A DNA stretch of 64,000 bases. Origin: Anolis carolinensis. Its lineage: Eukaryota. Location: assembly GCF_035594765.1 (NCBI RefSeq), contig NC_085845.1, positions 28,328,024 through 28,392,023 on the forward strand. The letters run 5' to 3'. The notes below the pieces were generated by a model. It ran no database searches. It was not told the DNA's origin and worked only from the letters and a program-made list of their open reading frames with translations. A program made the translations under genes and the position numbers. Positions 48,467-64,000 of the stretch are shown one piece after another (within the stretch, counting starts at the first letter, position 1; every line of letters starts with the position of its first letter).

Positions 48467-48600
48467 TGTTCTAGGGATCGGTGGAGAAAGGGATCCATTA
48501 GACATATAGGGGTCATTATTCATATTTGGCATCATAATATACCCAGAATAACCAGAGTAAGACGGTCCTTTACCATATAAGCCACCATCTGTGTGTTTGC
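48467..48600 (-). CDS. LEF1: LEF1 coding exon 3 (134 nt); gene continues beyond the window start
   Basis: Acceptor CTCTTTACAG|, reads (G)KHTDGGLYGKGPSYSGYSGYIMMPNMNNDPYMSNGSLSPPIPRT, donor |GTAAGT. Frame is continuous with exon 2. Confidence 0.98.
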
Positions 48601-50089: not shown

Positions 50090-50153
50090 CTTCCTCAGGA
50101 TGTTCTCTGCCTTTGTCATGGTAAATTTCCTGAGGCTGGCCTTGCCTGGACAC
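50090..50153 (-). CDS. LEF1: LEF1 coding exon 2 (64 nt)
   Basis: Acceptor TTTTGGCTAG|, reads VSRQGQPQEIYHDKGREHPEE+G (human VARQAQTSQEPYHDKAREHPDD, from memory), donor G|GTGAGA, phase 1. Not represented in this frame in the ORF track. Confidence 0.95.
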
Positions 50154-50424: not shown

Positions 50425-50650
50425 CTAACACCTCCCCAGGCAGGAAGCAGTCAAGCTTTGAAGCTGCAAGGCCATTAAATGCTAATCAAGCTGGCCAACT
50501 GCAACCTTCACACTTGCCTCAAAAGACAAGAGTTATTTCTCCCACCCAGGGCATTCCCCATTTGCCTAGTTTCCAACAGACTTCACAACCTCTGAGATGT
50601 GGATGAAACATCAGGAGAGAATGCTTCTGGAACATGGTCCAGGAAACCCA
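50425..50650 (+). mobile_element. Penelope 3'/pLTR fragment (deleted)
   Basis: Similar to the other copies; hammerhead stem II deleted. Confidence 0.8.
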
Positions 50651-50821
50651 AACCATTTCCTGATTGCTTTAATGCTGGTAAATTACTAAACAGTTTATGC
50701 AAATGCTTTATACAGTTGATGACTAATGCTCTGACCTTGCTGATTTAAACCCAAGAGATTGTATGGCTATTCTAGGCTTAATGGTGTTTATTATATTATT
50801 CTTTTTCATATAAACTTTCCT

Positions 50822-51260
50822 AGCCCTATGAGGACAAGCCCTATGAGGAGCGGCTTAAAGAGCTGGGCATGTTTAGCCTGCAGAAGAGAAGGCTGAGAGG
50901 AGACATGATAGCCATGTACAAATATGTGAAGGGAAGTCATAGGGAAGAGGGAGCAAGCTTGTTTTCTGCTGCCCTGCAGACTAGGACACGGAACAATGGC
51001 TTCAAACTACAGGAAAGGAGATTCCACCTGAACATCAGGAAGAACTTCCTCACTGTGAGAGCTGTTCGACAGTGGAACTCTCTCCCCGGGCCATGGTGGA
51101 GGCTCCTTCCTTGGAGGCTTTTAAGCAGAGGCTGGATGGCCATCTGTCGGGGGGTGCTTTGAATGCGATTTCCTGCTTCTTAGCAGGGGGTTGGACTAGA
51201 TGGCCCATGTGGTCTCTTCCAACTCTACTATTCTATGATTCTATGATTCTATGATTCTAT
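50822..51260 (+). mobile_element. CR1 LINE 3' end (young) in LEF1 intron 1
   Basis: Nearly identical to 19086-19437; (TTCTATGA)n tail. Confidence 0.93.
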
Positions 51261-51544
51261 GCCATGAAAATTGATTTACATTCAATACTATGAATATCGA
51301 TGTAGAAATAAGTCTCACTGCATTAAACACGAATTACTTCCAGGTAACTTGCTTGAGGACTGCAGTATAAAGGAGAAGGGACTTACAATATATTGTAGAT
51401 TGGTGAGGCATCATGTCCACACCAAAAATAAAATAAAAATTATTATGCATTACACAGGATAAATGCAACAAACATAACAAGCTACAAGAACTAATAGCTA
51501 ACATGCTTGTTTACCAAATAGTGCAGATTATTCTAATATGTATT

Positions 51545-51903
51545 GGGTTTCTGTGAGTTTTCCAGGCTGCATGGTCATGTTCCAGAAGCATTCTCTCCTG
51601 ATGTTTCACCCACATCTATGTCAGGTACCCTCAGTGGTTGTGAAGTCTGTTGGAAACTAGGCAAGTGGGGTTTATATATTTGTGGAAAGTCCAGATTGGG
51701 AGAAATAACTCTTGTTTATTTGGTATTAGACTCCATAGATATATAAACCCCACTTCCCTAGTTTCCAACATACCACACAACCTCTGAGGATGCCTGCCAC
51801 AGATGTAGGAAAAATATCAGGAGAGAATGCTTCTGGAAGATGACCATATAGCCTGGAAAACTCACAGCAACCCAGTGATTCTGGCCATGAAAGCCTTCGA
51901 CAA
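51545..51903. mobile_element. Short Penelope insertion with inverted pLTRs
   Basis: TSD CTAATATGTATT (51533-51544) / CTAATACGTATT (51904-51915); ends ...GCCATGAAAGCCTTCGACAA. Confidence 0.88.
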
Positions 51904-52561
51904 CTAATACGTATTTATTGACAATAAAGTTAACCAGCTACTACTTTCAAATCAATCTGTGCAAGTTCCTGCGAATCGTGAGACAGGCTAGAAACAATGA
52001 AAATAACACAAAGCCAAGGCAAACAATGAACAACTTAAACTGAAGCAAGTTTGTAACTCAATCCCATCTCTGAACAAAGTCCTGCTGACTTTCCATATGC
52101 TTTATTCTCAGGACTGCCGCCAGGATTGTAAATGACACTGATTTTGAGTGGAATTTATTTGAAGTGTGTCTGCTTGAGACCATTCTGCTGCCTGTTTTTG
52201 TTACAGCTCCACTTATTTTCTTAATATATTGCTGATATCAGAATCCGGCAGCAGCAAGAGAAGAAGGTGTTTCTCCTGATATACAAGCAGCAGCTCCCAG
52301 TTCCCATGGTCAAGCCACTGAAGCCAGAGAAGTAAGGGTTCTAGAGTTTCTACAGATACCTTTCATGCATCTTTTCCCCCTGAAACATGCTCTGATTTAC
52401 TGAAATTCAGGCTTGGGTAATACATGCGGCAGGCTCATCCTGTTTCCTTTGGCAGCAACATGAAAACATCAGAGAACTGCCTACTTAAGGCTACAGTGCC
52501 TTTCTCTGTACTATACTGCCAAATTTGATCCCTGAAATTTTCTGAAATAACTTTTTTTGGC

Positions 52562-53693
52562 TGTTGAACGCTTTTATGGCCAGAATCACAGGGTTGATGT
52601 GAGTTTTCCGAGCTGTATGGCCATGTTCCAGAAGCATTATCTCCTGACATTTCGCCTGCATCTATGGCAGGCATCCTCAGAGGTTGTGAGGTCTATTGGA
52701 AACTAGGCAAGTGAGGTTTATATATCTGTGGAATGATGTCCAGGGTGGGAGAAAGAACTCTTGTCTGTTTCAGGCAGGTGTGGATGTTTCCATTGGCCAC
52801 CCTGATCAGCATTGAATAGCCTTTCAGCTTCAAGGTCTGGCTGCTCCCTGCCTGGGGGAATCCTTTGTTGGGAGGTGTTAGCTGGCCCTGATTGATTCGT
52901 GTCTGGAATTACCGTTTTCAGAATGCTGGGAGCCCCGGTGGCGAAGTGCGTTAAAGCGCTGAGCTGCTGAACTTGCAGACCGAAAGGTCCCAGGTTCAAA
53001 CCCCGGAAGCAGAGTGAGCCCCCGCTGTTAGCTCTAGCTCCTGCCAACCTAGCAGTTCGAAAACATGCCAATGTGAGTAGATCAATATGTACTGCTCCGG
53101 CAGGAAGGTAAGGACGCTCCATGCAGTCATGCCAGCCACATGACCTTGGAGGTGTCTATGGACAACGCCGGCTCTTCGGCTTAGAAATGGAGATGAGCAC
53201 CAACTCCCAGAGTCAGACATGACTGGACTTAACGTCAGGGGAAACCTTTACATATTCCTGTTTTCAGAGTGTTGTTCTTTATTTACTCTCCTGATTTTAG
53301 AGTTTTTAAAAATACTGGTAGCAAAATCTGGCTACCAGTATTTAAAGAACTCTAAAATCAGGAGAGTAAATAAAGGAAAACACTCTGAAAACAGGAATTC
53401 CAGACATGAAACAGTCAGGGCTAGCTAACAAAGGATTCCCCCAGGAAGGAAACAGCCAGGATTTAAAGCTACAAGGCTATTCAATGCTATTCAAGGTGTC
53501 CAATGGAAACATCCACACCTGCCTGAAAGTTCTTTCTCCCACCCTGAATCTTCCACAGATATATAAACCCTACTTGACTAGTTTCCAACAGACCTCACAA
53601 CCTCTGGGAATGCTTGCCATAAATGCAGGCGAAACCTCAGGAGATAATGCTTCTTGAACATGGCCATACAGCCCGGGAAACTCACAGCAACCC
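52562..53693. mobile_element. Inverted Penelope pair with nested Sauria SINE (52929-53251, +)
   Basis: pLTR/3' sequence on minus then plus strand, with a fold-back junction at ~53323-53330. Confidence 0.88.
52643..52683 (-). ncRNA. Near-intact hammerhead motif, LEF1-sense
   Basis: Core intact except GAAATGTC (C>T in the palindromic stem III). Confidence 0.6.
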
Positions 53694-53714
53694 AGACACT
53701 ATGGCTGCTTTTGA

Positions 53715-54010
53715 ACCTCTGCGTTCGCCCCGAGTCACAACTCCAAAAAGGAAGTGAGAGGAGGAAGGGGGAGAGCCTCCGCGGCGGCCAACAGCTTCCA
53801 GCTCCGATCCCTCCTCCTTCTCTTCCTCCTCCTCTTCTTCTCCCAGCGCTGCTCATTCATGGGGAACCGCGGCGGATCGGATTTCAAAGCGCCGCCGTCC
53901 AAAAACAGCCGCCCGGCCGGCGGTTCCCGGTTTCCATGCCCCGGCACACACGCAGGCTGCCTCGGCCCTGCTCGCCTGGGAGAGCCTGCCCTTCCGAAAG
54001 GCCCCTCTTG
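53715..54010. promoter_or_regulatory. CpG-rich unique segment in LEF1 intron 1
   Basis: High CpG density between TE blocks; TCF motif TTCAAAG at 53883-53889; ETS-like GGAAGT at ~53750. Confidence 0.55.
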
Positions 54011-54204
54011 TGAAATATCCATTGGGTTTTGTGGTGCCGTGGTTTGAGCGTTAAGACCGTGGCTGTACTGCCATCAGAGAATGAAGGCAGATAGACAGCT
54101 CTTTTCACTGCCATGGTTCAGTGCTATGGAACCCTAGGCATGGGTAAACTTGAGCCTCCAGGTTCTTTGGATTTCAACTCCCACAATTCCTAACAGCCTA
54201 CCGG

Positions 54205-54990
54205 CTGGGCTGCTTTGAGTTTTCAGGGCTGCATGGCCATGTTCCAGAAGCATGCTTTCCTGACGTTTCGCCCGCATCAATGGCAGGCATCCTCAGAGGT
54301 TGTGAGATCTTTTGGAAACTAAGCAAGTAGGGTTTATATATCTCTGGAAGATTCAGGGTGGGAGAAAGAACTCTTTTCTGTTAAAAGCAAGTGTGAATGT
54401 TTCAATTGGCCATCTTGATTAGCATTGAATAGCCTTTCAGTTTCAAGGCCTGGGTGCTTCCTGGCTGAGGGAATCCTTTGTTGGGAGCTGTTACCTGCCC
54501 TGACTGTTTCATGACTGGAATTCCCCTGTCTTATGACTGTTCTTTACTGTCCTGATTTTAGAATCTTTTAATACTAGTAGCCAGATTTTATTCATTTTCA
54601 TGGTTTCCTTCTTCTTTCTCTTGAAATTGTCCACATTCTTGTGGATTTCAGTGGATTCTCTGTGTAGTCTGTGAGTGAGAGTGGTCCAGCATTGCTGTGT
54701 TCTCAAATAATATGCTGTGTCCAGGTTGGTTCATCAAGTGCTCTGCTATGGCTGACTTTTCTGGTTGAATCAGCCTGCAGTGTTTGGGCATTGCTGCGTT
54801 TGCTGGTCCCTATGGAGACTTGTCCACAGCTACACAGTATACGGTAGACTCCTGCAGAGGTGAGAGGATCCCTCTTGTCCTTTGCTGAATGTAGTATTTG
54901 TTGGATTTTCTTAGTGAGTCTGCAGATAGTTTGTAGGTTGTGTTTCTTCATCAGCTTCCCTATGTGGTCAATGGTTGCCTTCATGTATGG
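54205..54990 (-). mobile_element. Penelope-like element 3' part (degenerate GIY-YIG endonuclease + pLTR)
   Basis: ORF remnants ...DKRDPLTSAGVYRILCSCGQVSIGT... and ...LHRESTEIHKNVDNFKR... match the Penelope/Poseidon GIY-YIG domain; followed by pLTR. Confidence 0.9.
54259..54299 (-). ncRNA. Minimal hammerhead ribozyme motif, LEF1-sense, intron 1
   Basis: CCT CTGAGGA T GCCTGC CATTGAT GCGGGC GAAACGTC AGG; core intact. Confidence 0.78.
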
Positions 54991-55004
54991 TAAGATCCTC
55001 TTAC

Positions 55005-55885
55005 CTCAGTAGGAATCTACCGTATACCATGCAGCTGTGGACAAGTCTACATAGGGACCAGCAAACATGAATCAAGGAATATGAAAAGCACTACAGACTA
55101 ACTCAACTGGAGAAGTCAGACATAGCAGAGCGCTTGATGAACCAACCTGGACACAACATATTATTTGAGAACACAGAAATGCTGGACCACTCTCACAACC
55201 ATCCTGTCAGACTACACAGAGAAGCCATTCAAATCCACAAGCATGTGGACAACTTCAACAGAATGGAGGGAACCATGAAAATGAACACCATCTGGCTACT
55301 AGTATTTTAGAAAATCTAAAACCAGGACAGTAAATAAAGAACAAGAGTCAGAAAACAGGCCCGGGCTGTGGCTCAGGCTGGTGAGTAGCCAACTGCAGCC
55401 AGCTGCAACAAATCACTCTGGCCAAAAGGTCATGAGTTCGAGGCCAGCTTGTCTCTGTCTTTGTTCTATGTTAAGGCATTGAATGTTTGCCTTATATGTG
55501 TAATGTGATCCGCCCTGAGTCCCCTTCGGGGTGAGAAGGGCAAAATATAAATACTGTAAATAAATAAATAAACAGGAGAATCCCAGACATGAAACAATCA
55601 GGGCCAGCTAACACCTCCCAACAAAGGATTCCCTCAGGCAGGAAGCAGCCAGGCTTTGAAACTGCAAGGCTTTTCAATGCTAACCAAAGTGATTAATTGC
55701 CACATTTACACTTGCCTCCAACAGACATGAGTTATTTTTCTCACCTTGGACCTTTTACAAATAAAGTATGTAAACTTCATTTGCTTAGTTCCCAACAAAC
55801 CTCACAACATCTGAGGTTGCCTGCCATAGATGTGAGCGAAACGTCAGCAGAGAAATGGCCATACAGCCCGGAAAACTCATCATAG
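55005..55885 (+). mobile_element. Penelope-like element, inverted partner of 54205-54990, interrupted by a SINE
   Basis: Reverse complement of the same GIY-YIG/pLTR sequence. Confidence 0.88.
55359..55571 (+). mobile_element. L2-tailed tRNA SINE (Anolis SINE2-like)
   Basis: Tail GTGATCCGCCCTGAGTCCCCTTCGGGGTGAGAAGGG...(AAAT)n; AAACAGG direct repeat on the flanks. Confidence 0.82.
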
Positions 55886-56015
55886 CAATTGTTAGGGATT
55901 GTGGGAGTTGGAAGTCCAAAAAATCTGGAGGGATGGCCGAAGTTTGCCCTTGCCGTAACTTTAACTAACTTACTCTCGCTGGTGAATAACTACTCCTTCC
56001 AGAAAGTTTCTTCCA

Positions 56016-56142
56016 GGGTTGTTGCATGTTTTCCGGGCTGTATGGCCATGTTCTAGAAGTATTATCTCCTGACGTTTCGCCCACATCTATGGCAGGCATC
56101 CTCAGAGGTTGTGAGGTATGGAGAAACTCAGCAAGGAAGGTG
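56016..56142 (-). mobile_element. Mini Penelope pLTR insertion (~127 bp)
   Basis: Flanked by GAAAGTTTCTTCCA (56002-56015) and GAAAGTTTGTTCCA (56143-56156), a 13/14 TSD. Confidence 0.8.
56068..56108 (-). ncRNA. Minimal type I hammerhead ribozyme motif (Penelope pLTR), LEF1-sense, intron 1
   Basis: Minus strand CCT CTGAGGA T GCCTGC CATAGAT GTGGGC GAAAC GTC AGG: CUGANGA and GAAA cores, stem II, palindromic ACGU stem III, GUC triplet, CCU/AGG stem I. Confidence 0.8.
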
Positions 56143-56237
56143 GAAAGTTTGTTCCACCTTCCCAGCTGCAGTGCCACCTCCCGCTGCCCCACACCAATGG
56201 CCTACTCTCCTCTTCCTCTTCTTCTTCTTCTTCTTAC

Positions 56238-56465
56238 CTCGTGCCCATTGCTGCTAGGGATGGTTTCCGACTCGTTGACCAGCGAGGACTTGATGTCGGC
56301 CAAGTCTCCCTCTTCCTCCGGGTGGCTGATCTCGGCGAAGATCTTCTCCTTCTGGGGGTCGCCCTCGTCTTTGAAAGGGATCATCTCGTCGGTGGCGCAG
56401 AGCTCGGGGTCGCCTCCTCCTCCTCCGCCGCCGCCTCCTCCTCCTCCTCCCGAGAGCTGAGGCAT
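56238..56465 (-). CDS. LEF1: LEF1 coding exon 1 (beta-catenin-binding domain), 76 codons
   Basis: Translates MPQLS(G)13DPELCATDEMIPFKDEGDPQKEKIFAEISHPEEEGDLADIKSSLVNESETIPSSNGHE, the LEF1 N-terminus. ATG context GCCACGATGC. Donor GAG|GTAAGA at 56237, phase 0. Confidence 0.98.
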
Positions 56466-56833
56466 CGTGGCTGCTGCCTCTGGAGAGCCTGGAGGAGAGA
56501 GGGAAGGAAGGAAGAGAAACAACAGGAAGGATGGAAGTTAGAAGTCTTGGAGAGGAGGCTCCCTAATCTAATCAACCCACGCAAATACACAAAGAGTTAC
56601 CCTCCTTCCATCCCTACGCCACTCACCACCAAACACCTGGAGAAAGGGGAGAAGAGAAGGGGGAAGGACTCTCCCTCTGCTTGGTCTGCCGGCTTTTAAA
56701 AGAGAGGAAGGAAGGAAGGAAGGAAGGAAGGAAGGAATACAGACCCCCTTCCCTTCCCCAGTTTCTGTAGTGTCTGCCGCAAGAAGTCTGGACAAGTTTG
56801 CGCCTCTGCCCGGTTTGGCTTCTCTGCGTCACT
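56466..56833 (-). promoter_or_regulatory. LEF1 proximal 5' UTR / CpG-island segment
   Basis: Unique GC-rich sequence immediately upstream of the ATG; contains a (GGAA)n tract at ~56706-56737. Confidence 0.65.
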
Positions 56834-58009
56834 GTGTTGTTGGAGGCTTTCGTGGCCGGAATCACTAGGTTGCTGTGAGTTTTCCGGGCTGTGTGGCTAT
56901 GTTCCAGAAACATTCCCTCCTGACGTTTCGCCCACATCTATGGCAGGCATCCTCAGAGGTTGTGGGTTCTGTTAGAAACTCAGAAAGTGGGGTTTATATA
57001 TATGTGGAAGGCCCAGGTCTTGTCTGTTTGAGGCAAGTGTGAATGTTGCTATTTTTTTTTCGTATCAGGAGCAACCGGAGTTGCTTCTGGAGTGAGAGAA
57101 TTGGCCGTCAGCAAGGACGTTGCCCAGGGGACGCCCAGATGTTTTTGATGTTTTTACCATCCTTGTGGGAGGCTTCTCTCATGTCCCCGCATGGAGCTGG
57201 AGCAGATAGAGGGAGCTCATCCTCATTCTCCCCGGGTGGGATTCGAACCTGGCAGCCTTCAGGTCAGCAACCCAGCCTTCAAGTCACGAGGCTTTAATCC
57301 CCTAGGCCATCGGAGGCTCCAATGTTGTTATTGATCAGCATTGAATAGCCTTTCAGCTTCAAAGCGTGGCTGCTTCCTGCCTGGGGGAATCCTTTGTTGG
57401 GAGGTGATTCGCTGTCCCTGATTGTTTATTATCTGGAATTCCTCTGTTTTTGAGCGTTGTTCTTTATTTACTGTCCTCTGCAGGAGTCTACCTTATACCA
57501 TACAGGTGTGGACAAGTCTACATACATAGGGACCACCAACCACAGCATTACCCTAACAGGAATCAATGAATATGAAAGGCACTGCAGACTAACTCAACCA
57601 GAGAAAGCCATTAGCAGAGCACTTGATGAGTTGAGAACTATTTTGTATCTGGGCTCTGCTAGTCTATGTCAGCCCAATTTACCACCATAGGCCACACAAC
57701 CAACCAAACAACTTTGTGAACTCCAACTAGCTTCAGTAAATTAATGTGAATGTTTGTTCAGAATTTATGCCATTATGTAATTTTTTGTCTGACTATGTTG
57801 GTTTAATTTATTGATGTTAGGTTTAATTCACTGATGTTAGGTTTAATTTGATGTTAGGGTTTAATTACTGATTTCATATGTGGTTGTTTTTTTCTGGGAT
57901 GCTATGTAGGTATTTGTCAGTTTTAGTGAAGGCTGTTAATGTTTGCCCTTGAATTTGGAATCTGCTCTGAGTCTCTTTGGGGAGAATAAGCAGAACAGAA
58001 ATAAAGTTC

Positions 58010-58062
<53 letters not shown>

Positions 58063-59858
58063 GTGATGAACCAACCTGGACACAGTATATTATTGGAGAA
58101 CACAGAAATGCTGGACCACTCTAACAACCACCATGTCAGCCTACACAGATAAGCCATTGAAATCCACAAGCATGTGGACAATTTCAACAGAAAGGAGGAA
58201 ACCATAAAAATGAACAAAATCTGGCTACCAGTATTTTTAAAAATCCTCTAAAATCAGGACAGTAAATAAAGACCAACACTAAGAAAACAGGGGAATTCCA
58301 GACAGGAAACAATCAGGGCCAGCTAATCACCTCCCAACAAAGGATTCCCCCAGGTAGGAAGCAGCCAAGCTTTGAAGCTACAAGGCTATTCAATGCTAAT
58401 CAAGGTGATCAATTACAACATTCACACTTGCTACAAAAAAAAAAAAAAGGTGGGTTGCTGTGAGCTTTCCGGGCTGTATGGCCATGCTGCAGAAGCATTC
58501 TCTCTTGAGGTTTCACTCACATCTATGGCAGGCATCCTCAGAAGTTGTGAGGTTTGGTGGAAACTAGGTAAGTGGGGTTTATATATCTGTGGAAGGTCCA
58601 GGGTGGGAGAAAGAACTCTTGTCTATTGGAGGTAAGCATGAATGTTGCAATTAATCAACTTGGTTAGCATTGAATGGCCTTGCAGCTTCAAGGCCAGGCT
58701 GATTCCTGCCTGGGATAATCCTTTGTTGCAAGGTGTTCAGGGTGAATCTACACTAAAATGAATGAGGATTGGCACCACTTTAACTGTCATGGAATCATGG
58801 GATCTGTAGTTTGGTGAGGCACCAGCACTCTTTGGCAGAGAAGGGAATTCCAGACAAGAAACTATCAGGGCCAGCTAACACCTCCCAGCAAAGGATTTCC
58901 CCAGGCAGTAAACAACCAGACCTTCAAACTGAAAGGCTATTCAATGCTAATCAAGGTGATCAATTGCAACATTCACACTTGCCTCAAACAGACAAGACTT
59001 CTTTCTCCCACCTTGGACCTACTCTAAGGTAAAGGTAAGTCCAGTCATGTCTGACTCTGGGGGTTGGTGCTCATCTCAATTTCTAAGCCGAAGAGCAGGC
59101 GTTGTCCGTAGACACCTCCAAGGTCATATGGCCGGTATAACTGCATGGAGCGCCGGGACCTTCCCTCCGGAGAGGTACCTATTGATCTACTCACATTGGC
59201 ATGTTTTCGAACTGCTAGGTTGGCAGAAGCTGGAGCTAACAGCGGCCTCTCACGTCGCTCCTGGGGTTTGAACCTGGGACCTTTCGGTCCGCAAGTTCAG
59301 CAGCTCAGTGCTTTAACACACTTCGCCACCGGGGCTCCAATTAGGGTTTTTATAGAACGTAGTCTTGTGGGATCTTTAGGCTCTTTCTCCCACCCTGGGC
59401 ATTCCACAGATACAATAGAGTCTCACATATCCAACATAAACGGGCCGGCAGAATGTTGGATAAGCGAATATGTTGGATAATAAGGAGAGATTAAGAAAAA
59501 GCCTATTAAACATCAAAATAGGTTATGATTTTACAAATTAAGCACCAAAACATCATGTTATACAACAAATTTGACAGAAAAAGTAGTTCATTACACATTA
59601 ATGCTATGTAGTAATTACTGCATTCACGAATTTAGCACCAAAATATCACAATGTATTGAAAACATTGACTACAAAAATGCATTGGATAATCCAGAACCTT
59701 GGATAAGTGAGACTCTACTGTATATAAACCCCACTTGCCTAGTTCCCAACAAACCTCACAACCTCTGAGGATGCCTGCCTTAGATGTGGGCGGAAGGTGA
59801 GGAGAGAATGCTTCTGGAACCTCCCCATACAGCCCGGAAAACTCACAGCAACCCAATA
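56834..59858. mobile_element. ~3 kb nested composite: Penelope with inverted pLTR ends plus nested SINEs, L2 tail, MITEs
   Basis: Inverted pLTR termini; GCGTCACT at 56826-56833 and 59859-59866. Nested: SINE 57053-57320, L2-like tail/(AAT)n ~57700-58062, Sauria SINE 59027-59338, mariner MITE 59413-59720. Confidence 0.85.
56919..56959 (-). ncRNA. Minimal type I hammerhead ribozyme motif, LEF1-sense, ~450 nt upstream of ATG
   Basis: Same 41-nt intact motif as 56068-56108. Confidence 0.8.
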
Positions 59859-59859
59859 G

Positions 59860-60930
59860 CGTCACTTTTGTTTTGTTTTTTCCAAAACATAAACACCCGC
59901 TGTCTTTCTTTTTTTTCTCTTCTTCCGCTTGGGATCGTCTTTTTAAAAATAGAAATAAAAAAATCATGCAGGTCAAGAGAGTAAGATTCCCACAAAGGAA
60001 AAAGAGCTATTTTGGGGGAGTCTGGAGGGATGTTGACAGGGCAGAGTGGAGAAAGAAGGGAGAAGGAAGGGGAAATGCCACAGACAGAGACTTCACCGAG
60101 GGAAGGGGAAATGCCAGAGTGAAAGAGAGAGGAGAAGAGGAAAGGGAGAAGAAGGGAAGCCGCTCTCTCGCACACTCGTTCCCCTCCACGGAGCTCCCCA
60201 GCCACGCACGCCTCCCCAATCCTCTCCCCTTCCCAAACCCACGCACCGGGCCTCTGCCTTTGTCCCCGGGACCGGGGAGTGCTGGTCTCCCCCTTCCGAA
60301 AGGTCTCTCCCTCCTCTTCCTCGCTGCCGTCGCCTCCGGAGAGAAAAAGGGGCGACTCTGGGGGTTGGGGTCCGCCAGGAGGGCTGCGTGGAGACCCCGA
60401 AGCCCCTTGAGCGAGACCCCGAAACTTCTCCCCTGGAAGAAGAAGAAGAAAAAGAGTCCAAGGTTGACTAAGTCCTCAGGAGAAAGACTCCGTCCGTGGG
60501 GTTCTTCTTTCGTGGTCCAAACAATCCTCGGGAATGCGAAGGGGGAAAAGAGTCGCCTCGCTGCGTGCGACCCACGGTCTCGCGTGGAGCCTGCTCCAAA
60601 AGGCAGTGGTTTCTCTCTCTCTGCCTCTCTCTCTCTCTCCTCCTCTGTCTCCCTCCGTAGTGGAACTTTAACATTCCCTCCTCCTCCTCCCACTCCCCTT
60701 TCCCTCCCTCCTCCCCCTTTTCCTCTCTCTCTCGCTCTGTTGAAAGGGTGGGGGCGGGAGGAAGAAGATGAAAGGGAAGCCGCCGCTTTGATTGACAGCG
60801 CATTGATAGACGCTCGGGAGAGAGGGAGAGAAAAAGGAAATGTAGCCATCCCGAGGAGGAGGGGAGGTGGTGGTGGTAGTGGAAAAGGCGGGGGGGGGGG
60901 GTGGACTCACAACAACCTCAACCCAGCTTA
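59860..60930 (-). promoter_or_regulatory. CpG/GC-rich segment, probable LEF1 promoter and distal 5' UTR
   Basis: Non-repeat, CpG-dense, with GA/CT tracts, a GC box (GGGGCGGG ~60750) and a TCF/LEF motif CTTTGAT at 60786-60792. TSS not determinable from sequence. Confidence 0.65.
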
Positions 60931-61020
60931 GGAAGCAGCGAACTGGGAAAGGGATAGGATGGATCTCTCTCTTTTGAAAAATTATTATATCTATGTACCC
61001 AAAGTTTTTTTTCCCCACCA

Positions 61021-61447
61021 CCCCCTTACCATGGGAAATGAAGATCATAAAGCAGCCTCGGCTACTGAGTTCCACATCAGGAAAGGTGCAAGCTCAGGGT
61101 TAGGAAGCAAGAAATGTACCTGGGAAAACAAGAAAATATGCCAAGAAGTCCCTCTGAAAACAAAACAAAAACATAAATGGTATTGTGTTGTCGAACACCC
61201 TGAACCTTCCACAGATATTTAAACCCCCCTTGCCTAGTTCCCCCTTACCATGGGAAATGAAGATCATAAAGCAGCCTCAGCTACTGAGTTCCACATCAGG
61301 AAAGGTGTAAACTCAGGGTCAGGAAGCAAGAAATGTACCTAGGAAAACAAGAAAGTAAGCCAAGAAGTCCCTCTGAAAACAAAACAAAAACATAAATGGC
61401 ATTGTGTTGTCGAACACCCTGAACCTTCCACAGATATTTAAACCCCA
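61021..61447 (+). repeat. ~219-bp tandem duplication upstream of the presumed promoter
   Basis: CCCCCTTACCATGGGAAATGAAGATC... starts at 61021 and 61240; few mismatches. Confidence 0.92.
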
Positions 61448-61480
61448 CTTTTGCCTAGTAGTTTCCAACAGACCTCACAA

Positions 61481-61521
61481 CCTCTGAGGATGCCTGCCAT
61501 AGATGCAGGCGAAACGTCAGG
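61481..61521 (+). ncRNA. Minimal hammerhead ribozyme motif
   Basis: CCT CTGAGGA T GCCTGC CATAGAT GCAGGC GAAACGTC AGG; perfect stem II. Confidence 0.8.
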
Positions 61522-61678
61522 AAAGAATGCTTCTGGAACATGGCCATACCGCCCGGAAAACTCACAGCAACCCATACATTGCATTGTTTTTGTGTCCCGT
61601 TGAAGGCTTTCATGGCCGGAATCATTGGGTTGCTGTGAGTTTTCCGGGCTATATGGCCATGTTCCAGAAGCATTATCT

Positions 61679-61719
61679 CCTGACGTTTCGCCTGCATCTG
61701 TGGCAGGCATCCTCAGAGG
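61679..61719 (-). ncRNA. Minimal hammerhead ribozyme motif
   Basis: Intact core, inverted relative to the 61481 copy. Confidence 0.8.
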
Positions 61720-62562
61720 TTGTGAGGTCGGTTGGAAACTAGGCAAGTGGGGTTTATATATCTGTGGAAGGTCCACGGTGGGAGAAAGAGGCAGGTGTGA
61801 ATGTTGCAGTTGACCAGCTTGATTAGCATTGAATGGCCTTTGCAGTTTCAAAGCCTGGCTGCTTCCTATCTGGAGGAATCCTTTGTTGGGAGGTGTTAGC
61901 TGGCCCTGATTGTTTCCTGTCTGGAATTTCCCTGTCTTCTGATTGTTGTTTTCTGAGTGTTCTTGATGAACCAACCTGGAAACAGCCTATTATTATAGAA
62001 CATAGAAATGCTGGACCACTCTCACAACCACAATGTCAGACTACACAGAAAAGCCCTTGAAAGCCACAAGCATATGGGCAGTGTTAGCAGAAAGAAGGAA
62101 ACCATGAAAATGAACAAAACGTGGCGACCAGTATTAAAAACATCTTTAAAATCAGGACAGTAAATAAAGAACACCACTCTGTAAACAGGGGAATTCCAGA
62201 CATGAATCGATCAGGGCCAGCTAACACCTCCCAACAAAGGATTCCTCCAGGCAGGGAGCAGCGAGATCTTGACGCTGAAAGGCTATTCAATACTAATCAA
62301 GGTGGTCAACTGCAGCATTCACACCTGTCTCAAACAGACAAGAGTTCTTTCTCCTACCCTGGACTTTCCAGATATTTAAACCCCTCTTGCCTAGTTTCCA
62401 ACAGACTTCACAATCTTTGAGGATGCCTGCCATAGATATGGGCGAAACGTCAGGAGAGAATGCTTGTGGAACAGCCCGGAAAACTCACAGCAACCCTGAA
62501 TTGTTTGTAATGTTGTGAGTCGTTTTAAGAGAGAAAAGCGGATATCATCATCATCATCATTA

Positions 62563-62620
<58 letters not shown>

Positions 62621-63597
62621 GGACCCACTACCACCATATCCCCCCGATTAGAGCCTCATCGCTTTCAGTATCCTCATCACCAATTCTCCTGACATCGTTT
62701 ATATAGATATTTTTATTATTATTGTTATGATCTGAGATGGGTTGAGGGCTTTTCTTTCAAAAGCTCCGAGGGTGGGAAGGGAATTGCTCTTTTCAAAGGG
62801 GTGGAGGTTTCTAATTCACTCTCCCCTTCCCCAAGGAAGCCTCTCCGGAGAGGGCAAATAATAGTTATCTGAACATCTTCAGACAAATCTGGAACAAGGA
62901 TGTTTTTCTAGGGCTGCTTTGTTAAGCCTTCCCCTTTTTGGAGAAGGAGGGGGAGCGCATATATTTCAAATTGTTTGGTGGCTGGAAATGGAGGGTGTGG
63001 GGAGAGGGAGAGAAGGCTCATGTGGGTGTTTTTGTTTGTTTATATTTACAGTTTTAGAAAAAGATACACAGAGAAAGAGAGGAAGGGAGGGGAAAGGCGT
63101 CGTTACGAAATGGGAAGGCAGGGAGAGAGGAAAAGGGATCAGAAATGAGCAGGCAAAATAGGGTTAGCAGCAGGCAGGTATCATAAAGGACCCCTGGATG
63201 CTTACTTGGAAGGTAAATCCAGAGAGAGAGAAACCATTCAAGGTCTTTCTGTGTACATCTTATGTGGCAATATGTCACATTGAATTGAATGGTATGGTCA
63301 CTTCAACAAGTCATAGAGTCGGGCTGTGTCTTCTTTTCAAAACAAATATCCTACCGATAGTCTTTTCCTATTGTAAATAAACCTTTTGTGATTTTTAAGA
63401 TTAGACTGTGCATCTTTGCTTGCCTAAACTCTGAATTCTTTACAGCCACATCACACGCTCTGCTGGCTCATGAGCTGAATGCTCAACTTTTAGTATCCTG
63501 TTTTATTTTTGGATGCTCTGCTATATTTTAGGGTAGCTTTCCCAAACAAAAAGGGTGATTAACTGAAACATTAATGCTAGCTTCCAACTGACAAAAG

Positions 63598-63797
63598 ACT
63601 CTTGTCACACCCTGGACTCTCCACAGATATATATTTTTTCCTTTCCTTGCCTAGTTTATCCATGCCTCACAACCTCTGAGGATGCCTGCCATAGATGTGG
63701 GCGAAACGTCAGGAGAGAATACTTTTGGAACATGGTCACACAGCCCGAAAGACATACAACAACCCTGTGATCCCGGCCATGAAAGCCTTCGACAACC
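63598..63797 (+). mobile_element. Penelope pLTR fragment
   Basis: Ends CCGGCCATGAAAGCCTTCGACAAC. Confidence 0.85.
63673..63713 (+). ncRNA. Minimal hammerhead ribozyme motif
   Basis: Intact core inside pLTR fragment 63598-63797. Confidence 0.8.
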
Positions 63798-64000
63798 AAA
63801 AAGGGTTTTCTATGCGTTTCTCTTTCTTCTATACGTACAGTAATTGAAATGTGCCATAGTTGGCATTCGAACGTGGAATAAAACATGGCATCGATATATA
63901 ATAGGATTGGACATACCATATTATATCTGTCTATATAATCGAACATGGTATGTGTGTATGCATTGCATACATATAGTGGAAATGGGCCAACATTAGTTGA

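Follow-up and report, generated by a model that had tools for sequence, protein, structure and literature searches.

Penelope-like retroelements (PLEs) are clustered, in a strongly non-random manner, around the CpG island at the 5′ end of LEF1 in a 64-kb stretch of the Anolis carolinensis genome (contig NC_085845.1; this whole stretch of 64,000 nucleotides is hereafter called the window). PLE-matching bases, as determined by self-BLAST and alignment, numbered 5911 (44%) in positions 50425–63797, as compared to 178 in positions 1–50424. The 15 arms in the cluster represent approximately 10 insertion events, mostly inverted pairs (nine events if the nested copy at 58451–59020 is merged with its host). 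Outside the cluster, nhmmer with filters off, run on all 64 kb, identified one PLE event (15571–15748), and tblastn with the full protein of the green anole element PAc agreed; the next nhmmer match outside the cluster had E = 0.82, and no further PLE copy was found in the 64 kb. In 2 million simulations with uniform placement, the probability that 10 of 11 events fall within any 13.4-kb span was 5e-5. The initial annotation had proposed about 15 hammerhead-bearing pseudo-long terminal repeat (pLTR) segments in about 13 kb and one small insertion in the preceding 50 kb; the latter claim stands, as does the number of arms, all 15 of which could be aligned, but only six carry intact cores and the arms amount to about 10 events. 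The assignments of the repeats to Penelope elements and of the locus to LEF1 were likewise borne out, by matches to PAc and by Pfam (E = 2.6e-27), respectively.

Repeats other than PLEs, which were listed by hand from a self-BLAST of the window and cover families present at least twice in the window, numbered 30 outside and eight inside the cluster, corresponding to 0.60 per kb in both (one of the eight, at 57630–58062, was counted as an insert only). Repeats that we take to be SINEs (short interspersed elements), MITEs (miniature inverted-repeat transposable elements), and CR1 elements are thus spread through the whole window, as had been annotated. While 10 of 11 PLE events were located inside the cluster, this was the case for eight of 38 other repeats (Fisher p = 5e-5); because the density of the other repeats is the same within the cluster as beyond it, the excess is family-specific. 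PLE density was approximately 2 events per kb of host DNA in the cluster versus 0.02 per kb outside. In host coordinates (calculated with the ATG set 3 bases off), the cluster lies symmetrically about the LEF1 ATG, reaching 2.5 kb downstream and 2.6 kb upstream of it, and is centred on the island. Six of the eight non-PLE repeats of the cluster sit within PLE DNA, and one PLE sits within a MITE. At this one locus, independent and family-specific insertions are therefore concentrated at the promoter island. Recent-looking copy pairs across the cluster boundary were found for a SINE-like repeat (26603–26882 and 57042–57321; 94% identity) and for CR1 (19087–19438 and 50848–51240; 97%), indicating that other families were recently active on both sides of this boundary.

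Identity and structure of the elements

The repeats are Poseidon-clade PLEs of two subfamilies, one of which matches PAc (Poseidon_Ac; Frangieh et al. 2024, PMC11167929; this and all other papers are cited from partial text). A translated window fragment retrieved four Anolis reverse transcriptase (RT)-endonuclease proteins, and all close protein matches were from Anolis. The peptide found after the ribozyme in copies from the window forms the start of an 836-aa Anolis PLE protein (P0002), whose residues 649–829, representing the GIY-YIG endonuclease C-terminus, match events e4, e6, and e9 (tblastn, best E = 1.5e-58; events are numbered as in Table 1). The GVYRI motif is present in window translations; Pfam returned no endonuclease match on window fragments. 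The telomerase-like RT found upstream of the endonuclease (RVT_1 in the homologous full proteins) is absent from the window copies, which are 5′-truncated. Pattern scans of metagenome contigs gave no matches.

Every event is short, 5′-truncated, and without RT, and most are paired with an inverted partner. The alignment also revealed the 30–40-bp tail at one end that, together with 5′ truncation and an inverted truncated partner, typifies the canonical PLE unit (Craig et al. 2021, PMC8557442); no structural difference from this unit was found, while the density and position of the window copies are unusual. The outer ends of the copies lie at +85 or +116 from the element start codon. Reverse transcription of PAc starts internally at 111–118, with the 30–40-bp tail lying between two start sites (PMC11167929); the +116 ends fall inside this published range, and the +85 ends match the other end of the tail.

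The pLTR carries a putative minimal hammerhead ribozyme that overlaps the open reading frame (ORF) start. Among the 15 hammerhead-region arms (50434–63797), six have the full catalytic core (CUGANGA ... GAAAC GUC) and nine are degraded. The predicted helix II folds in three of four arms tested, not in the 15.6-kb copy, with weak z-scores (−0.8 to −2.0); Rfam gave no hammerhead, only sub-threshold microRNA-like matches on hairpins. The long helix II and the bulged base resemble those of minimal hammerheads (Cervera and de la Peña 2014, PMC4209133), which have been proposed to act as dimers; for the PAc ribozyme, cleavage in vitro required protein (PMC11167929). Three intact cores (54205–54349, 56014–56135, and 56836–57053), which are located either in intron 1 or in the likely leader, are oriented along the LEF1 sense strand.

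The PAc-type subfamily comprises e10 and e5. The former is PAc-type because it matches, by eye, 83 of 86 nt of the RNA shown in PMC11167929 (Supplementary Figure 1); it is also 89% identical to P0002 over 38 aa, and e5 has 7/106 minority bases in common with e10. The remaining copies form a sister subfamily with a pLTR 20–38% distant from that of e10. The window copies share with PAc the ORF start inside the hammerhead, the ends at internal RT starts, the one-end tail, as well as a C-terminal GIY-YIG segment that is 61–87% identical over matched stretches; unlike PAc, most belong to the sister subfamily, and all are short and dead.

Independence of the insertions

The phylogeny of the local copies points to independent insertion. 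With CpG columns removed and arms of <150 aligned bases left out of the tree, arm distances averaged 0.156 between events (range 0.06–0.25; 88 pairs) and 0.133 within events (seven pairs). Divergence showed no relation to chromosomal distance (rho = −0.10, p = 0.34), the tree was star-like, and the 15.6-kb copy was as near to the cluster copies as these were to one another. Target-site duplications of 12 bp at e2, 13 bp at e5, and 8 bp at the e6+e7 compound outscored all 300 random flank pairs, in a test with hand-set boundaries and with the 15.6-kb copy lying within a microsatellite; the duplication at e9 was marginal (p = 0.04), those at e1, e3, and e8 were not significant (p = 0.12), and neither e4 nor e10 showed any.

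An origin by segmental duplication within the region, or by re-insertion of a source copy located there, had been raised as an alternative and is, in our assessment, extremely improbable. One real case exists, a near-identical tandem duplication of ~220 bp (61021–61242; region 61021–61460) that takes in the left end of e8. Otherwise, the star-like tree, the lack of a distance effect, and the presence of two subfamilies all speak against local copying, and the flanks, truncation points, and target-site duplications differ from event to event. Segmental duplication as the origin of all copies was rejected, as no common flanks, breakpoints, or local clade were found. No RT-coding source copy was detected by tblastn in the window, whose end at 64000 bounds this search. 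In vitro, the PAc template required 172 nt of ORF (PMC11167929); the local copies end short of this, and are therefore unlikely sources.

The region 56836–59857 is treated as one compound because of its shared 8-bp outer flank, with e7 (58451–59020) probably nested in the right pLTR of the outer pair e6. This apparent nesting, along with the 24-bp gap between e8 and e9, would fit a process in which the endonuclease recognizes existing pLTR or tail DNA (perhaps only if unmethylated) and cuts in or near it, so that a chance insertion attracts the next. PAc cleaves a target built from its own ORF-pLTR junction, and the Drosophila virilis Penelope endonuclease required the tail for recognition (PMC11167929). 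Such self-seeding is nevertheless unlikely. Only one of the 10 events lies within another PLE, the others being in host DNA or a MITE; neighbouring events are up to 1.2 kb of host DNA apart; the tailed 15.6-kb copy drew no PLE over the 15 kb to one side of it or the 34 kb to its other side; and the centre of the cluster is the island. Self-seeding would account for no more than a single nested event and a single close pair.

Without PRDM9, meiotic breaks concentrate at promoters, as in birds, dogs, and knockout mice. Breaks defaulting to CpG-island promoters could be captured by PLEs if the RT primes on both ends, and two-ended inverted insertions are compatible with a double-strand break. The lineage of anoles and fence lizards no longer has PRDM9 (PMC8892340). 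However, the 8–13-bp duplications at e2, e5, and e6+e7 would suit the element's own staggered cuts rather than resected breaks, PLEs normally occur as inverted pairs whatever the host (PMC8557442), and PAc itself cuts both strands (PMC11167929); we therefore regard break capture as a poor candidate, with little probability.

CpG retention and the divided LEF1 island

The state of CpG sites in the arms suggests that most of the cluster was unmethylated in the germline. In the 11 arms from 53.3 kb onward (a post hoc cut-off), 32 of 39 CpGs in five CpG columns are kept, three are TG/CA, and four are other, while the six other arms, including the 15.6-kb pair, kept 5/23, with 16 TG/CA (17 with one double hit; Fisher p = 3e-7). 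The two sets had similar rates of C>T/G>A change outside CpGs (7.6% and 6.7%, respectively). As compared to the non-CpG expectation, arms at or beyond 53.3 kb showed no excess CpG loss (p = 0.95) and the other arms a strong excess (p = 6e-11); without any cut-off, CpG state was related to position (Spearman rho = 0.62, p = 0.014; 15 arms). The right arm of e2 and the left arm of e9, which are the closest arms from different events (distance 0.06, bootstrap 88), kept 1/5 and 4/5 CpGs, respectively; this difference between nearest relatives argues that decay follows position and not subfamily. Within e3, three of five CpGs have decayed in the left arm and none in the right. These patterns are consistent with a germline-hypomethylated domain over at least 53.3–63.8 kb, comparable to the broad islands described for developmental genes; in each of seven vertebrates tested, the anole among them, broad non-methylated islands are present at the Hox clusters (PMC3583005). 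The unmethylated germline chromatin envisaged in the initial annotation is thus supported, indirectly and from a small number of sites, by CpG retention for most of the cluster.

Removal of the PLE events leaves 5132 bases of host DNA in the region, in which the rebuilt island measures 2293 bp (GC 0.556) with a CpG observed/expected ratio (o/e) of 0.60, as compared to 0.16–0.22 in the first 50 kb; the PLE copies thus divide one 2.3-kb CpG island into three pieces (Table 1). LEF1 intron 1 is now 6087 bases long, versus 2575 without the insertions. The third island piece is likely the promoter or 5′ leader of LEF1. The human LEF1 5′ untranslated region (UTR) is 1178 bases long (PMC4248067), and the same number of host bases upstream of the anole ATG, with insertions removed, reaches ~60664; judged by this length, the 3-kb compound at 56836–59857 may therefore lie inside the ancestral LEF1 5′ leader. 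Predicted donor-like sites are located on the minus strand at 56626, 59846 (supplied by a PLE), 60910, and 61029, and a predicted acceptor-like site lies ~23 bases before the ATG. Motifs that we take to be of TCF/LEF type were found at 53883 and 60786, in two of the island pieces, and are possibly autoregulatory Wnt elements.

The segment listed as exon 2 is presumably LEF1 exon 2, going by the LEF1 protein. Intron 3 takes up the remainder of the window down to base 1 (the first ~48 kb), and no later-exon motifs were found in the window downstream of exon 3. Upstream of LEF1, the cluster was followed to the window end at 64000. The loop of a hairpin MITE (halves 54135–54204 and 55891–55954), intact copies of which are found at 35283–35424 and elsewhere, is the exact position of the longest pair, e4, which itself contains a nested SINE-like piece (55381–55567). 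Other inserts in the e6+e7 compound include two SINEs (57042–57321 and 59036–59338), a MITE (59411–59714), and, within e6, a 433-bp AT-rich insert (57630–58062) that has a TAA tail, zero CpG, and no self-BLAST partner in the window.

Table 1. PLE insertion events, LEF1 exons, and CpG island pieces in the 64-kb window.
Feature	Position	Strand	Remarks
x0, lone PLE inverted pair in ATT microsatellite	15571–15748		left-arm tail; CpGs decayed 5/7
LEF1 exon 3 (approximate)	48467–48600	minus	from translation
LEF1 exon 2 (presumed)	50090–50153	minus	translation; AG/GT boundaries by sequence
e1, single arm with deletions	50434–50650	plus	ribozyme broken; CpGs decayed 3/3
e2, inverted pair	51542–51907		right-arm tail; 12-bp target-site duplication (1 mismatch); CpGs decayed
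e3, inverted pair	52556–53696		SINE 52929–53251 nested in left arm
CpG island piece 1	53698–54060		GC 0.62, o/e 0.83; TCF-type motif ~53883
e4, longest pair	54205–55890		GIY-YIG endonuclease C-terminus (PAc residues 649–810), no RT; left arm with intact core
CpG island piece 2, around exon 1	55954–56836		GC 0.55, o/e 0.51, repeats masked
e5, PAc-type single arm	56014–56135	minus	intact core; lies in intron 1, ~100 bp from its start; target-site duplication of 13 bp (1 mismatch)
LEF1 coding exon 1	56238–56465	minus	76 codons, beta-catenin-binding N-terminus; Pfam PF08347 (CTNNB1_binding), E = 2.6e-27; GT donor by sequence
e6+e7, 3-kb compound	56836–59857		8-bp duplication at borders; starts ~370 bp upstream of LEF1 ATG
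CpG island piece 3	59858–61021		GC 0.54, o/e 0.57; TCF-type motif ~60786
e8, arm with 10-bp inverted tail remnant	61186–61574	plus	intact core
e9, inverted pair	61599–62497		24 bp from e8; left arm with tail and intact core
e10, PAc (Poseidon_Ac)-type arm with tail	63540–63797	plus	intact core; CpGs kept 5/5

A probable insertion bias and the relaxed-constraint alternative

A bias of PLE insertion toward the open, hypomethylated promoter domain and its shores in the germline is, on balance, the probable cause of the cluster, a reading that rests on this one locus. A PAc-like protein-RNA complex would cut AT-rich spots preferentially in such germline promoter chromatin, and about 10 independent Poseidon-type insertions would in this manner have landed in host DNA no more than 2.6 kb to each side of the LEF1 start codon. 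PAc cleaves both strands with a preference for AT-rich ATT sequences and starts reverse transcription internally (PMC11167929). The source copies would lie elsewhere in the genome, the arms beyond 53.3 kb would have sat in germline-unmethylated DNA, and the bias would act at insertion and not via later selection, with accessibility of the promoter domain and shores mattering, rather than any strict dependence on an unmethylated CpG where the cut is made. Most of the later SINEs and MITEs would have entered new, neutral PLE DNA. The mechanism is plausible, albeit unproven.

Several observations weigh against an insertion bias of this kind. Events e1 and e2, together with e3's left arm, are located in a CpG-decayed flank (50.4–52.9 kb; host o/e 0.19) and have lost 13 CpG sites (3/3 in e1, five TG/CA and two other of eight in e2, and 3/5 in the left arm of e3); persistent hypomethylation is therefore not required, or the boundary has shifted. 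The 53.3-kb cut-off was chosen after the fact, and the CpG columns were defined from the same alignment. Among the other repeats, SINE copies showed a weak CpG contrast (six versus three and four versus one kept against the closest outside copy), MITE copies showed no inside/outside difference, and the CR1 contrast was weak or absent. Pfam identified RVT_1 only, and no chromatin-reader domain, in the PAc-like protein. Antisense PLE pieces occur in varied anole gene models, at N-terminal, internal, and C-terminal positions, and Pfam found no homeobox and one basic helix-loop-helix domain among 26 PLE-bearing gene-model proteins; the family is therefore not confined to developmental promoters, although this gene-model proxy (9 + 57 proteins found, 26 Pfam-scanned, 10 named, no control family) is uninformative on promoter bias. 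At the 1-Mb scale, Penelope density is weakly related to recombination (rho 0.15, polymorphic copies), below the value for SINEs (PMC7561263), and anole Hox clusters are described as slightly over-rich in DNA transposons, not in long interspersed elements (Feiner 2019, PMC6791295). One might speculate that automatic classifiers misfile short inverted PLE pairs as DNA transposons.

The gene models that carry antisense pLTR as coding segments (proteins P0005–P0013 and P0015–P0036, with one gecko protein that has a related piece) include TBATA, TIMM10B, ANKRD45, an MTMR-type phosphatase, RIPOR1, PPP1R3G, and others. These segments are probably annotation artefacts or the result of exonisation through splice-like sites of the element.

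With a single locus examined, and with PLE pieces in the bodies of many unrelated genes, the cluster could also represent a one-off hotspot that follows no genome-wide rule. This is very unlikely, as two subfamilies struck the same spot and a comparable build-up is described at four Hox clusters and other developmental regions of the anole (review PMC3899998).

A further alternative is near-uniform insertion followed by selection, with PLEs either purged from the long intron 3 or tolerated, even favoured, at the promoter. Ribozymes, inverted repeats, and splice-donor-like sites could harm introns, and selective removal over time has been proposed (Feiner 2019, PMC6791295). However, intron 1 of the same transcript holds five events, including intact sense-strand cores (left arms of e4 and e5), while 30 other repeats are tolerated in intron 3, and the hundred-fold difference in density would require approximately 100 purged events there. 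Relaxed constraint, which Di-Poi reportedly invoked in 2009 for the anole Hox repeats (to go by the title), should let in every family, but non-PLE repeats show no enrichment here, and six of eight of those inside the cluster are within PLE DNA. Selection alone is thus improbable as an explanation, marginally more so than self-seeding.

Both the elements and their structure have been described before, as has their accumulation at developmental regions of the anole, Hox clusters included; anole Hox loci accumulated mostly PLEs (review PMC3899998), in agreement with the initial annotation. New here is a fine-scale, family-specific pattern of independent PLE events with a methylation record, at one locus. 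Our literature search found no report of a PLE focus on CpG islands or promoters (Di-Poi 2009 and Feiner 2016 may say more on developmental genes), and the available text of the PAc paper describes AT-rich target motifs and no chromatin or CpG-island bias (PMC11167929). The LEF1 case resembles the Hox repeat invasion (PMC3899998; Feiner 2019, PMC6791295) in host group, element class, and association with a developmental regulator. Unlike in that invasion, a single non-Hox gene is involved, the focus is within 2.6 kb of the start codon, other repeats show no excess, and a sequence-based signal of germline hypomethylation is present; these differences favour insertion bias over relaxed constraint.

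Promoter-seeking elements include the P element, murine leukemia virus (MLV), piggyBac, and Tf1. If the bias is real, PLEs would share with these the repeated independent insertions near transcription starts; unlike them, PLEs use a GIY-YIG endonuclease with a telomerase-like RT, and Pfam detected no tethering factor. To our knowledge, no tethering factor has been described for PLEs.

Repeats are usually scarce at the developmental genes of vertebrates, to which anoles form a noted exception. Whether relaxed selection or insertion site is the cause in anoles has been described as open (Feiner 2019, PMC6791295). The LEF1 locus separates both causes, as enrichment is confined to a single family, its insertions arose independently, and germline hypomethylation is recorded in the copies themselves. 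The prediction can be taken to public anole data (the assembly, testis non-methylated-DNA maps GSE43512, and polymorphic transposable element calls), and PAc, reported to be the first PLE with in vitro activity (PMC11167929), makes a chromatin preference directly assayable. Should genome-wide enrichment fail, the cluster would be an ordinary heap of dead retroelement ends. We tentatively suggest, as a possibility that falls short of probable, that anole Poseidon elements target germline-unmethylated broad islands of developmental genes and that the swelling of Hox clusters reflects active targeting, not relaxed constraint. If so, targeting would have trisected the LEF1 island and placed a 3-kb ribozyme-bearing insert in the probable ancestral 5′ leader, which LEF1 would need to splice out or bypass, and the reason for the repeat-filled developmental genes of anoles would be recast.

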